64,000 nucleotides of DNA from Candidatus Omnitrophota bacterium (GTDB lineage: Bacteria; Omnitrophota; Gorgyraeia; Gygaellales; JAQTUX01): NCBI GenBank assembly GCA_028707125.1, contig JAQTUX010000001.1, positions 1,066,438-1,130,437 on the forward strand, given 5' to 3'. The position numbers were made by a program, and so were the translations under genes. Below the pieces are notes generated by a model, which was not told where the DNA came from, searched no databases, and was given only the letters and a program-made list of their open reading frames with translations. This document shows, piece after piece, positions 20,155 through 31,642 of the stretch (positions are counted from its first letter, which is position 1; the number at the start of each line of letters is the position of its first letter).

Positions 20155-20211
20155 TTTTCTATACTACTCTCATTAATAATGTCTATCAAGGAGTAATTTT
20201 CCCTATCTATC

Positions 20212-20457
20212 TTATAGCATATCATCTGGTAAATCCGTCCTGTATTGTTCTTTAATTTCTTTAACTTTATCCCTACCCGTAAAAGTGTCATATCTATAAA
20301 TCTCGTCGAACTGAATGTCTTTATTGAAATTATCTACGACGGACTCGTACCCAGCTACTAGGGAATACTGTTTACCTTTATCATTTTCCCAATCGATAAA
20401 AATATAAGCCCTGTACTTCTTCTCGTTACTCATTGTGAGGCAACGGCTCAGAGGCAT
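20212..20457 (-). CDS. Hypothetical small protein
   Basis: 81-aa ORF in the AT-rich island edge; no family recognised. Confidence 0.3.
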   Translation of the reverse strand: MPLSRCLTMSNEKKYRAYIFIDWENDKGKQYSLVAGYESVVDNFNKDIQFDEIYRYDTFTGRDKVKEIKEQYRTDLPDDML

Positions 20458-20525
20458 GGGGACTGTCCCCGGACTTCGCGTTTAGCATTAAATGCAGCTG
20501 TCCCGTTTTTTTAGCGAAGGTTTAA

Positions 20526-20906
20526 TCATTTATCAGTAAACACTATTGCTGTACCTGTTTCGTACATCCCCATTTGTTTTATATCTATGACTGCATCTGC
20601 CCCAACCTCTCGCGCTTTTTTTATCATATCTCTTTCATCGCTAATACGGTGAGGAGTACCACCAGTCCCAAAAAAGCTAGCGCATTTACTTATTTTAATA
20701 ATACCGATTTCTTTATAGGGTCTATCGGGTTTAATTGTAGAAAATAGCGAAATCTCCTCTTTCTCAGTTTTAGGAGGATATTCAGCTTCTGTAAACTTTG
20801 TAAATCTTACTGAAGAAGAACCATACATAAGATAATTACACCCATTAATGGATACCGCTAGCGCTAATAAGGCAATAACCTTTTTCATGCTTCCCTCCTC
20901 AAGCAT
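20526..20906 (-). CDS. Putative lipoprotein
   Basis: MKKVIALLALAVSINGC is a signal peptide with a lipobox. The likely start is the internal MKK. Confidence 0.4.
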   Translation of the reverse strand: MLEEGSMKKVIALLALAVSINGCNYLMYGSSSVRFTKFTEAEYPPKTEKEEISLFSTIKPDRPYKEIGIIKISKCASFFGTGGTPHRISDERDMIKKAREVGADAVIDIKQMGMYETGTAIVFTDK

Positions 20907-20963
20907 ATCCTGATTACCTGTTTTCTATCCTTACGCCGCATTTGAGGCAAAGGTTAACTTAGC

Positions 20964-23900
20964 TTAGTCAGCCCAATCCTTGCATATTAAAGTCGCCTGC
21001 TCTAAGACAGTATCAGTGGCTCTTTTCTGTTTATCAGGTGGATAGCCGTATTTCCTTAAAACCCTTTTTACCATAACTCTCAATTTGGCCTGGATGCTTT
21101 CTCTCAATGTCCAGTCTATGGCTAAGTTGTTGCGGACGGTCCGCACAAGTTCTCTGGCAATCGTCCTTAGCGTCTCATCCCCTAAAACCTTCACTGCGCT
21201 GTCGTTGACTTCAAGCGCGTCGTAAAAGGCAAGCTCATCCTCAGTTAACCCTAAATCATCACCGCGCCTGCCGGCCTCACGCACCTCTTTAGCAAGCTCA
21301 ATGAGTTCCTCAATGATCCTTGCTGAATCAAGAGCCTTGTTCTGATACTTTCTTATGGATCTCTCCAGCATCTCAGCAAAAGACCTGCCTTGAATGAGGT
21401 TTTTCTTTGATCTGAGCCTGATTTCATCGCTTAATAATCTCTTCAATAATTCAAAGGCGAGATTCTTATGAGGCATACCACGCACCTCTGCTAAGAACTC
21501 ATCGCTTAGAATAGAGACATCCGGTTTCTTAATGCCGGCTGCCTCAAAGATGTCCACCACCCTATCAGAGGTAATCGCCTTGGATACAATCTGTTTGATC
21601 GCGGAATCAAGCTGTTCATCGGTCTTGCCTGCTCCGGTGTGGAATTTAGCCAGCCGCGATCTTACTGCCTGAAAAAACGCTATATCATCTCGGATCTTAA
21701 GCGCGTCAGTATGGGGAACGGCCAATGCAAAGGCCTGAGATAGCTGGGTGACAAATCCCAGAAATCTCTCCTTTCCGCCCTTCTGCTTTAAAAGATGCTC
21801 TTCGGCAAGCGCCATAATAGACATCTTATCCCGCGCAGAAGCAGTGAAGAATCGCTTATAATTAAACCCGTGAAACATATTTGATACCACCTCAAACTTC
21901 TCACGCATCAGCGCCACAGCCTCTTCCTGTTCAAAGGTGGGCTTGCCTTTGCCGCCGCTTTCGGTATAGTCAGCAAGCGCTCTCTTTAAATCATCGGCAA
22001 TGCCTAAGTAGTCAACAACAAGGCCGCCGGGCTTGTCCTTAAATACTCTGTTGACCCTGGCAATCGCCTGCATCAGCCCGTGGCCGCGCATAGGCTTATC
22101 AATATACATCGTATGAAGGCAGGGAACGTCAAAGCCCGTAAGCCACATATCCCTGACAATAGCCAGCCGCAAGGGATCGGCCGCGTCCTTCATGCGGTCA
22201 CCAAGAGAGCGCCTTTTGGGCTTTGTCCTGATATGCTCTTGCCAGTTAACAGGGTCGGCAGCAGAGCCGGTCATAATCACCTTCATAAACCCCTTATCAT
22301 CATCCTTGTGGTACCACTCCGGCCTGAGTTTCTTAATCTCATTATGCAGCTCAATACAGATACGCCTGCTCATACAAACCACCATTGTCTTGCCGTCAAG
22401 CGCTTGAAGGCGTTCCTCAAAATGACTGACAATATCTTTGGCGATCCGGCCTATGCGCTTTTTGCTTCCCACAATCGCCTCAAGCCGGGCCCATCTTGTC
22501 TTGAGTTTCTCTTTTCTTTGAACCTCTTCGCCTTCGGTTGCCTCTTCAAATGAAGGATCAATCATCGGCCTTTCTGCGGATTTAAGCTCAAGCCGGACAA
22601 GGCGGCTCTCGTAGTAGATTCTTACCGTAGCGCCGTCTTTTACCGCCTGCTCAACATCATAAATATCAATATAATTGCCGAAAACCGCCCTTGTATTGCG
22701 GTCTGTAAGCTCTATGGGCGTGCCGGTAAAGCCGATAAAAGAGGCATTAGGCAGGGCATCGCGCATATGCCTGGCAAAACCGTCAATAAAATCGTATTGG
22801 CTCCTGTGCGCCTCATCGGCGATAACCACTATATTCTTTCTATCGGAAAGCCCAGGAAAGGCATCGCCCTTATCCTCCGGTAAAAACTTCTGCACAGTGG
22901 TAAAGACGATACCGCCTGAAGAAACCTTTAAAAGCTCCCTCAGCTTGCTTCTTGAAGTTGCCTGAACCGGCTTCTGTCTCAATAAATCCTGGCATCTGCT
23001 AAAGGTGCCGAAAAGCTGATCGTCTAAATCATTGCGGTCGGTCAATACGACGATGGTGGGATTATCCATAGCCAAGACAAGCTTGCCGGTATAGAAAGCC
23101 ATAATCAGGCTCTTGCCTGAGCCCTGGGTATGCCAGACAACACCGCAACGCTTATCGCCCTTGGCTGCCTTCAATGTCTCTTCAACTGCCTTATTGACCG
23201 CGTGGTATTGGTGGTAGGCGGCGATCTTCTTATTCAACTTATGCTGCTCTTCCTCAAAGACGATAAAATGCCTGATTAAATCAAGGAAGATACGTTTATC
23301 AAACATTCCGCGCAGTAATACCTCAATTTGCGGAACAGCCGTAGGTTCTTTTTTCTTCCCTTCGATGGTCTTCCAGGGAAGAAAGCGTTCCCATTCAGAG
23401 GTTATGCTCCCTGCTACTGCCTCAATGCCGTCGCTTGCCACAAGGACTTCATTAAAATGAAAAAGTGCTGGAATTTCGGCCTGATAGGTATCAAATTGCT
23501 TAAAGGCAGTAAAACAGGAGGCATTTTCATCGGCGGGATTTTTAAGCTCAATTACAGCCAAAGGCAGACCATTGACAAATAAAACAATATCCGGCCTGCG
23601 GTTATGATTGTTTTCGATAACGGTAAACTGATTAACCGCAAGAAATTCATTGTTCTGCGGCTTGTTAAAGTCAAAAAGCCAGACCTTATCCCCGATAACC
23701 CTGCCGCCTTTGCGATATTCAACATCCACACCCTCAACCAGCATCTTGTGAAAATGCTGGTTATTCACCACAAGGCTGGGACTTTCAAGGCGTAGCAGTT
23801 TCTTAATGGCCTCGTCTTTTGCTTCATCGGGAATAGAAGAATTAATCTTTTGAATAGCGTCCTGTAACCGATCAATAAGAACAACCTCGGAATAATCCTT

Positions 23901-30230: not shown

Positions 30231-30265
30231 TATCGCTTCCTCCCTATGACCGCCAAACTTAAAAG

Positions 30266-30291
30266 CCGGGACATCTCCTCCCCGGCATAAG
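30266..30291 (-). terminator. Possible intrinsic terminator downstream of the PLD gene
   Basis: On the minus strand the sequence reads GCCGGGgaggagatgtCCCGGCttttaagttt, i.e. a 6-bp GC stem followed by a T-rich tract. Confidence 0.35.
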
Positions 30292-30369
30292 CGTTTTATA
30301 AGTGTCTGGGCGTCATCTTCATCTCTGCCATATAGTTACATATTATAGCACCCCTATATTTGTGAGCAA

Positions 30370-31554
30370 TTATTTTCTTATGAGGGGGAGCATCCTGTAA
30401 ACATTGGCTTTCCTGTCGGAATAATCAGGGGGTGTTGGCTTGTCTCTGGTGATTTCAATGAGCCCGTTTGACTCTAATTCCAAGAGACCTAATGAGATAG
30501 TCGTATCGCTTATGCCGTAGAGCTTGGACATATCTTCCTGGCTGCGGAACCAGAAAGGGTATTTTGTAGAGCGGGATGCTTCATACAGGCAAACAAGATA
30601 CATATACTTTGCCCGCATAGAGAGTTTGTCGGAGTATCCCTGATGCCAATATTCAAAGGGAATTGTTATTGGGGCGGAGAGCGCGGCGGTATCGGACTTT
30701 AGTGTGACTTTGCCTTTCCTGTAGTCTATAAGGCCGCAGCGCCTGAGGCGTTTCAGTAAACGGTGCACCCTCTCATAGAAGTAGTGGTGTTCATTGCGAT
30801 AGGTGCCCGGTTTCTTTGGAGCTTGGTATTTCATATCTTTGGCTATAGAGTCGTAATCAAGGTCAAAGGATGACTGGTCTCTCTCTTGCCGGAGTTTATG
30901 TAACAGTAGATAAATGTCAAATTGTCTGTCTGCCTGGGCTTTAATGAGACGGCGGCCTAACTTAGGGGAAAGAAGAAAACTGCTTGAAACAGCTACGCCT
31001 TCTGCGGAAGGCAGGAATAGATCTTTATCCTGAAGAGGGATATCGTTAATCTGCTCCTTCAAGGCAATGGCGTCTTCGGGAGAGTCCTTAAAATAGGTGG
31101 CCTCATAGTTATCTTCAATGGCCGCCTTTGACCAGTTGGCGCTGCCTACGAATACATATCTGTCATCAATAACGGCTGCCTTTGTATGCAAAAGATGCTC
31201 AGGCGTATCAAAGTATACGGCTATGTTGTTTTCCTTTAGCTTTTCATAGGCAAGGCGGTTCTCCTTTAGCTTTGAGTCCTCCAAGATGACCTTTATCGCT
31301 ACTTTACGCTGTTTCGCGGCTATGAGATCATTAAGCAGCTCGTTAACCGGGTTGGCCTGGTCATCAGGGCCTATTATGATAAAGTAGATCGCTATGGTAA
31401 TTGAGGTCTTGGACTCGGATAGGTATTTATGCAGGTATTGGTGGTAGGAGCTGCCGAAAAGGATTTCCGCAGAGCTGATCTGGCCGCAAAATACAAAATA
31501 AGCCAATGCAGCCAGAGATATATAGTTGACTCTTAGCTTATTTATGTTTCTCAC
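30370..31554 (-). CDS. Phospholipase-D-family (Nuc-like) nuclease with signal peptide and C-terminal winged-helix domain
   Basis: The N-terminus has a signal peptide. The HKD motif is HTKAAVIDDRYVFVGSANWS. The C-terminal ~200 aa end in a wHTH-like segment MSKLYGISDTTISLGLLELESNGLIEI. Confidence 0.6.
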   Translation of the reverse strand: MRNINKLRVNYISLAALAYFVFCGQISSAEILFGSSYHQYLHKYLSESKTSITIAIYFIIIGPDDQANPVNELLNDLIAAKQRKVAIKVILEDSKLKENRLAYEKLKENNIAVYFDTPEHLLHTKAAVIDDRYVFVGSANWSKAAIEDNYEATYFKDSPEDAIALKEQINDIPLQDKDLFLPSAEGVAVSSSFLLSPKLGRRLIKAQADRQFDIYLLLHKLRQERDQSSFDLDYDSIAKDMKYQAPKKPGTYRNEHHYFYERVHRLLKRLRRCGLIDYRKGKVTLKSDTAALSAPITIPFEYWHQGYSDKLSMRAKYMYLVCLYEASRSTKYPFWFRSQEDMSKLYGISDTTISLGLLELESNGLIEITRDKPTPPDYSDRKANVYRMLPLIRK

Positions 31555-31642
31555 CTTGGCTTGATTATACTATAAAAACTCCGGAAAGAGCAAAAAATTA
31601 TAATGGCCTTTTAATTAGCGAAAAATTGAGTATAATATAGAT

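Follow-up and report, generated by a model that had tools for sequence, protein, structure and literature searches.

Defence genes embedded in Type I restriction-modification (R-M), BREX, DISARM and Hma systems have been surveyed at scale, and 96.7% of the embedded genes have the same orientation as the system that holds them (Payne et al. 2024, bioRxiv 10.1101/2024.01.29.577857). An experimentally shown case in Type I R-M is TgvAB, which lies in the Type I operon of V. cholerae VPI-2 (PMC11411939). Another precedent is PrrC, encoded by a HEPN-domain gene within a Type IC hsd operon (EcoprrI, E. coli), a suicide RNase that is restrained by the R-M complex (PMC3710099, PMC12707154). Two abortive-infection (Abi) families have likewise been linked to R-M: AbiU1/AIPR often occurs in association with R-M (PMC3506569, PMC3632139), and the AbiU2 HEPN domain occurs in R-M operons (PMC3710099, Table 1). 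Here, we analyse a Type I R-M operon with three embedded genes in a 64,000-nt stretch of a Candidatus Omnitrophota genome (contig JAQTUX010000001.1, positions 1,066,438 to 1,130,437; hereafter the window). A sequence-only reading of this DNA had described an AT-rich defence island of ~11 kb, built on such an operon and bearing genes of Abi and HEPN type, with a PLD nuclease at its edge. The gene content described there is supported, and the literature cited above bears out its remark that embedding of this kind is a known theme.

We favour, with a probability of roughly 80%, the following reading: the locus is a complete Type I R-M operon in which a backbone-like hsdM/hsdR frame surrounds a low-G+C mosaic interior, the interior consists of a divergent hsdS and three single-gene modules and likely arose by at least two acquisitions, and the embedded genes act as a second defence layer. 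The six R-M and embedded genes and the PLD gene had been placed on one strand, and all seven are intact open reading frames (ORFs) on the minus strand at the positions claimed for them. One further feature, the leftover 3' end of a second hsdS, came from a repeat search, direct reading and motif scans.

30370-31554, minus strand: PLD-wHTH gene (394 aa, GTG start), a PLD-family (Nuc/NucT-like) nuclease with a C-terminal winged helix-turn-helix (wHTH)
28647-30230, minus strand: hsdM (527 aa), Type I methyltransferase subunit (N6_Mtase and HsdM_N)
28112-28657, minus strand: 181-aa ORF, a minimal HEPN-fold protein; first embedded gene
26913-28115, minus strand: hsdS (400 aa), specificity subunit with two target-recognition domains
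25955-26911, minus strand: 318-aa ORF of an AbiU2-like HEPN family; second embedded gene
25890-25933, minus strand: hsdS fossil 3' end, reading DSLLLKLMSGKIRV
24047-25864, minus strand: AIPR gene (605 aa) of the AbiU1/AIPR family (PF10592); third embedded gene
20964-24020, minus strand: hsdR (1018 aa), restriction/translocase subunit (HSDR_N, SWI2_SNF2, T1RH-like_C)

Evidence that the R-M part is complete came from profile matches to all three subunits. HsdM matches PF02384 (3.6e-110) and PF12161 (1.2e-28) in Pfam and the PADLOC model MTase_I (4.8e-223). HsdS contains PF01420 in two stretches, matches PADLOC Specificity_I over residues 23-399 (1.4e-84), and carries the conserved C-terminal motif DSLLPRLMSGKIRV. 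HsdR contains PF04313, PF18766, PF22679 and PF11867, and its score against TIGR00348 of NCBIfam (637.9 bits, 2.1e-191) is far above the cut-off of 284.55. As judged by sequence, hsdM, hsdS and hsdR form one complete Type I R-M operon in which all three subunits are whole. By similarity, the operon is nearer to the EcoR124 (IC) family than to the EcoKI family; the nearest solved structures to HsdM are 3khk and then EcoR124 M, which ranks before EcoKI M, and the nearest to HsdR is EcoR124 HsdR.

We fetched 125 comparison loci in all, and two of them, L002 and L006, contain closely related operons. HsdM is 80-81% identical to its counterparts there and HsdR is 75-76% identical. HsdS is only 26-30% identical to the HsdS proteins of related operons, which suggests that the window HsdS has a different specificity. 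HsdR of L002 (6297-9896) and of L006 (10939-14505) is ~170 residues longer than HsdR of the window, which lacks this C-terminal extension; the extra part has a weak match to Peptidase_S24 (LexA-like). Downstream of hsdR in the window are two small low-G+C ORFs without a family match, at 20526-20906 (126 aa) and 20212-20457 (81 aa), the first of which starts with a lipoprotein-like signal (MKKVIALLALAVSINGC). We considered whether these two ORFs could be a broken hsdR extension, and rejected the idea since they show no similarity to it and the 126-aa ORF resembles a lipoprotein.

The stop and start codons from hsdM to the 318-aa ORF had been described as overlapping or abutting, and they are: hsdM overlaps the 181-aa ORF by 11 nt, the 181-aa ORF overlaps hsdS by 4 nt, and a 1-nt gap separates hsdS from the 318-aa ORF. 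The spacing is wider further on, with 90 nt between the 318-aa and AIPR genes and 26 nt between AIPR and hsdR, and the AIPR gene is preceded by its own Shine-Dalgarno sequence (GGAGGGAG). The three embedded ORFs are neither HsdS fragments nor pseudogenes, given that each has full-length homologues and retains the invariant residues of its family. For each of the three proteins, one of the matches is 100% and comes from a metagenome-assembled genome annotated as Candidatus Omnitrophica bacterium (locus tags PHR44_05490 and PHR44_05500; 1.26-Mb contig). In this respect, the locus is like the embedded-gene systems of the large-scale survey and TgvAB, with cargo in the same orientation between core genes and differing cargo in sister operons. 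It differs from the surveyed systems in that the 181-aa and 318-aa proteins match no PADLOC v2 model, not even the PDC candidates that came out of the survey.

Base composition locates the atypical part of the locus. We used as a reference the 55 window genes outside the island, with a G+C content (GC) of 0.488 +/- 0.030 and a GC at third codon positions (GC3) of 0.574 +/- 0.056. Three genes are backbone-like: hsdR (GC 0.474, z -0.5), hsdM (0.460, z -0.9) and the PLD-wHTH gene (0.456, z -1.1). The other four are deviant: hsdS (0.398, z -3.0), the 318-aa gene (0.383, z -3.5; GC3 0.326), the 181-aa gene (0.348, z -4.7) and the AIPR gene, which has the lowest GC in the window (0.336, z -5.1; GC3 0.261). 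The AT-rich part is thus the inner 4.6 kb only (24047-28657), which comprises the AIPR, 318-aa, hsdS and 181-aa genes, and the steps in GC are located at the start of hsdR and the stop of hsdM. The proposed AT-rich ~11-kb island holds for this central block but not for hsdM, hsdR and the PLD gene, which match the backbone gene by gene. Nor is the left flank GC-rich, as had been claimed: an amine-oxidase gene at 17616-19133 has a GC of 0.376 (z -3.8), and the ACP-FabA gene has a GC of 0.440.

These data bear on the proposal that the whole 11 kb is a recently acquired genomic island, with AT-richness marking its foreign origin. The centre deviates strongly in both GC and GC3, and horizontal transfer is typical of defence genes. 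However, hsdM, hsdR and the PLD gene lie within about one standard deviation of the backbone GC, and the low GC at 17616-19133 shows that such composition also occurs outside the interval. The Pfam scan found no integrase domain in any island ORF, the tRNA scan found no tRNA in the interval, and a repeat search found no convincing att-like direct repeats flanking the island; the absence of integrase and tRNA had already been recorded in the sequence-only reading. Since only the central block is atypical, the claim of a compositionally foreign 11-kb island is not supported, and exchange of the operon interior fits the pattern better than insertion of the whole. We consider acquisition of the entire interval unlikely.

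Additional evidence for exchange of the interior came from related operons. In four of the loci with homologues of the 318-aa gene (L002, L006, L008 and L014), the homologue occupies the hsdS-hsdR interval of an operon from the same Type I lineage, whose HsdM and HsdR proteins show 55-81% identity. The cargo of this slot differs from locus to locus. L002 has the AbiU2-like gene only. L006 has a 249-aa gene, a DUF2326/CTD10 ABC-3C-like gene and DUF6119, followed by the AbiU2-like gene. L014 has SIR2-HerA, a 177-aa gene, the AbiU2-like gene, DUF3037 and DUF4357. The SIR2 and HerA (DUF87) pair of L014, which is from an Ignavibacteria metagenome-assembled genome (MAG), occupies 4390-7784, upstream of the AbiU2-like gene.

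A direct mark of such exchange may be preserved in the spacer before the AIPR gene. A 43-nt direct repeat, 91% identical between 25891-25933 and 26932-26974, corresponds to the final ~15 codons of hsdS. The live hsdS copy encodes the conserved C-terminal motif given above, and the spacer copy encodes its fossil counterpart with no gene preceding it. Orphan HsdS C-terminal ends (..LLPxLMSGKIRV) are also found in L006 (8207-8242) and L041 (5268-5303), so that hsdS fossils occur in three loci, always within the hsdS-hsdR slot and between cargo genes. The AbiU2-like gene of L002 and that of L006 lie immediately next to hsdR, and AIPR is absent; the window therefore differs from these two operons by a segment made up of the fossil and AIPR. 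To us, the fossil looks like a junction scar that joins two operon interiors, one of which formerly had AIPR directly after hsdS. The position of the fossil suggests that the 318-aa and AIPR genes arrived separately.

The AIPR protein is a near full-length homologue of AbiU1, with matches to PF10592 (6.6e-36), to the Abi-alpha-like PHROG (1.5e-55) and to PADLOC AbiU over residues 28-571 (3e-87). It contains the conserved motifs D67-G69-D71...Q103-x-K105 and V327-N-G-C-Q-T332. Nine loci around four close homologues represent four distinct contexts:

preceded by hsdR and an unknown gene of 810 aa, and followed by Fic and RhuM genes
beside TraG and integrase genes (an integrative-conjugative-type element)
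beside a reverse transcriptase
beside DUF4145 and HerA genes

In three Firmicute plasmid loci, AIPR is a solo gene. The closest homologue (80% identity) is in L114, where the Type I operon also has a gene of 281 aa (648-1493) in its hsdS-hsdR interval and one of 810 aa (4459-6891) following hsdR. Neither of these genes has a Pfam match, and Fic and RhuM follow AIPR.

The 318-aa protein had been regarded as unassignable, but it belongs to the Pfam family HEPN_AbiU2 (PF18734; E 9.5e-9, 35.4 bits, cut-off 26.8), and many of its 77 homologues are also above the threshold. The Lactococcus cremoris plasmid pG322 carries an AIPR gene of 589 aa and, after it, a PF18734 gene of 341 aa (3e-8, 33.8 bits), a pair that we take, from its sizes, to match the published abiU1 and abiU2. 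Because the 318-aa protein passes the HEPN_AbiU2 threshold as the 341-aa protein does, both AbiU gene families lie side by side in the window. What connects the 318-aa family to lactococcal AbiU2 is only that both pass this one Pfam model; hhalign found no direct connection. In an Omnitrophica MAG, a homologue of the 318-aa protein (P0028, 520 aa), encoded on a 149-kb contig, is fused to an N-terminal PF04450 domain (basic secretory protein-like, peptidase-type).

One interpretation of the shared families is that the 318-aa and 605-aa genes are a true two-gene AbiU system, inserted as a unit, in which AIPR would be the effector and the AbiU2-like protein its modulator. As on pG322, the genes are neighbours on one strand, here 90 nt apart. 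Several differences argue against this interpretation. The two genes stand in the opposite order to the lactococcal pair, and the hsdS fossil lies between them, indicating separate acquisition; a join of two interiors at this point speaks against a co-inherited pair. The pairing is not kept in relatives: AIPR is present in none of the 29 other loci that have a 318-aa homologue, and a hidden Markov model of the 318-aa family found no homologue in any of the nine loci around close AIPR homologues. The AbiU2-like gene of L002 and L006 is next to hsdR without AIPR, as described above. GC3 also differs between the genes (0.326 for the 318-aa gene vs 0.261 for AIPR). The window protein carries VDKNIAH where lactococcal AbiU2 carries RNKIYVH, so that the window subfamily lacks the Arg of the lactococcal protein, and the pair is embedded in R-M here but free-standing on a plasmid in Lactococcus. 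We regard a unit AbiU insertion as quite improbable, and continue to favour separate acquisition into a mosaic interior.

The distribution of the three embedded families is informative about whether the locus is a single system. Had the five-part arrangement been a new conserved multi-gene system with obligatorily cooperating parts, as the sequence-only reading implied, the set would be worth naming. The tight packing from hsdM to the 318-aa gene is consistent with this possibility, as is the recurrence of the 181-aa gene between hsdM and hsdS. However, the full arrangement is repeated in none of the 125 loci except L001, which is a short contig with the same sequence. In L006, the nearest relative, hsdM, the 181-aa gene, hsdS, the AbiU2-like gene and hsdR are all shared, but the place of AIPR is taken by different cargo. 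Outside the window, L006 is the only locus in which members of the 181-aa and 318-aa families occur together, and none of the 80 loci holding a 181-aa gene has a 318-aa homologue. Loci with 318-aa homologues outside the four hsdS-hsdR slots have it as a solo gene in varied chromosomal and plasmid contexts. Each of the three families is mostly found alone elsewhere, and the families are independently distributed. The proposed check for co-occurrence of the 318-aa protein with hsdS and AIPR thus finds it in the slot between hsdS and hsdR in four loci but not with AIPR. An obligate five-part system is largely refuted, and we consider it highly improbable; the case for naming it falls with the unrepeated set and the missing AIPR/318-aa pairing.

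The locus is thus a real, tidy and ordinary mosaic case of a known theme, defence genes embedded in Type I R-M, and not a new named system. It provides a clean example of Type I R-M operons as docking sites, with a conserved hsdM/hsdR frame around a swapped interior. What is novel is the family of the 181-aa HEPN protein, for which there is no model, and the hsdS-fossil junction marks. The leftover hsdS 3' ends mark joins, and contribute a minor mechanistic point to what is known about embedding. Apart from the lead offered by the 181-aa family, the locus is ordinary.

The 181-aa protein is all helical, with the four-helix up-down arrangement of the HEPN fold, and its Rx4H motif (R143-N-N-L-F-H148) is invariant in 37 sequences. 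The family alignment has a mean column identity of 59%, and within it R143-NNLF-H148-G-x-K-x-P is invariant. An exhaustive profile search of 1.84 billion cluster representatives returned 371 at E <= 1e-3. Neither the protein nor its relatives, of which 36 aligned ones and ten distant representatives were scanned, had a match to a Pfam, NCBIfam or PADLOC model; the family profile had no match among PDB sequences, and the only PHROG match was weak and ParB-like (0.0022). The idea that the 181-aa family is related to the 318-aa family was rejected (hhalign probability 0.3%). Six distant members (P0345, P0353, P0356, P0360, P0362 and P0364) are ~290-310 aa long, with the HEPN part at the N-terminus and a C-terminal extension of ~120 aa that has no Pfam match.

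The genomic context of the 181-aa family points to Type I R-M. Eighteen of the 36 metagenome loci with enough flanking sequence on both sides have the gene embedded in a Type I operon, 17 of them with hsdM upstream and hsdS downstream and one with only hsdS detected. When neighbouring ORFs were clustered, HsdM (26 ORFs) and HsdS (17) alone recurred as partners, and the cluster that came next had three members. The HsdM proteins beside the gene fall into three classes of identity to the window HsdM (27-31%, 42-43% and 66-80%). The remaining loci are near genes for an integrase, a subtilase, a TIR protein, OLD-like ATPases and similar proteins. The family differs from HepT/MNT HEPN toxins and from Csm6 in lacking an MNT antitoxin, a CARF domain and detectable sequence similarity, as well as in having hsdM and hsdS as its only recurrent neighbours.

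The closest parallel is with PrrC and EcoprrI, where a HEPN gene is likewise embedded in a Type I hsd operon and has the same orientation. This precedent would make a guard role plausible for a HEPN protein embedded between hsdM and hsdS. One important difference is that PrrC is a fusion of an ABC ATPase and HEPN of ~400 aa, while the 181-aa protein is a bare HEPN without an NTPase and matches no PrrC model, and guard behaviour here is purely an extrapolation from PrrC. Taken further, the analogy would have the 181-aa protein represent a family of minimal HEPN RNases, so far undescribed, that is specialised for Type I R-M systems and whose gene is translationally coupled between hsdM and hsdS across three or more diverged classes of hsdM. 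Such a protein would be a PrrC-like guard without an NTPase, silenced by the methyltransferase complex and freed when phage anti-restriction proteins disable that complex. We put this forward tentatively, as a doubtful but specific proposal. The family is the one lead worth following; should it prove to guard R-M, it would be a far simpler analogue of PrrC.

The favoured reading suggests a two-layer mechanism. The operon would probably start at hsdM, after the hairpin downstream of the PLD gene, and its genes may be transcribed together; the upstream embedded genes, which share a strand with the R-M genes, are likely translationally coupled. HsdM2S would methylate host DNA, and HsdR2M2S would cut unmodified incoming DNA. 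The embedded proteins would then form a second layer that halts cells in which phage have escaped or disabled restriction. In this layer, the 181-aa protein would be a latent canonical HEPN RNase and AIPR a latent nuclease-type effector; the AbiU2-like protein, also assigned to a HEPN family, may be another latent RNase, with uncertain catalytic status.

Several observations weigh against this reading. The Arg of the Rx4-6H motif is missing in all 33 aligned members of the 318-aa subfamily, and the 318-aa protein may for this reason not be a canonical RNase. In the subfamily, H216 is invariant, whereas each of the 33 members has V, T, G or S at position -6; of the motif, only N or D at -5 and K at -4 (K212) are retained. 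A number of further Arg and Asp residues are also conserved or invariant. For the 181-aa protein, a canonical HEPN protein, there is no evident antitoxin-like partner, which leaves the avoidance of self-toxicity unexplained. Promoter-like matches number 28, against 28.2 expected from shuffled sequence, and because they are no commoner than in shuffled sequence, the transcription units are putative. Finally, we infer the RNase and nuclease activities, the triggering and the co-transcription alike.

The PLD-wHTH gene is probably a separate transcription unit, adjacent to the R-M operon but not part of it. The intergenic gap between it and hsdM is 139 nt and contains a terminator-like hairpin (30286-30265), G+C-rich with a T tail, which supports this view. 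The protein contains PF13091, a PF00614 HKD motif and a C-terminal HTH. Its matches to NucT and DrmC are below the cut-offs (DISARM DrmC NF038319, 55.3 bits vs 133), and PADLOC and the other scans of the window found no other DISARM genes. No related R-M locus has a homologue of the PLD gene. A plasmid context for the PLD-wHTH protein was considered and dropped, as the single weak archaeal match was uninformative.

Searches for RNA elements and repeats in the interval gave no Rfam match and no relevant tandem repeat, and ToxI-like repeats were rejected on these grounds. The single tRNA in the window is a tRNA-Gly (anticodon CCC, minus strand, 41084-41154), which is ~10 kb from the operon and is not associated with it. 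The amine-oxidase-type gene in the left flank (17616-19133) encodes a 505-aa flavin protein and lies between genes for a 7TM-GAF histidine kinase and an ACP-FabA fusion. It is as AT-rich as the island interior, and it has a PADLOC match to a carotenoid-type C-3',4' desaturase model.

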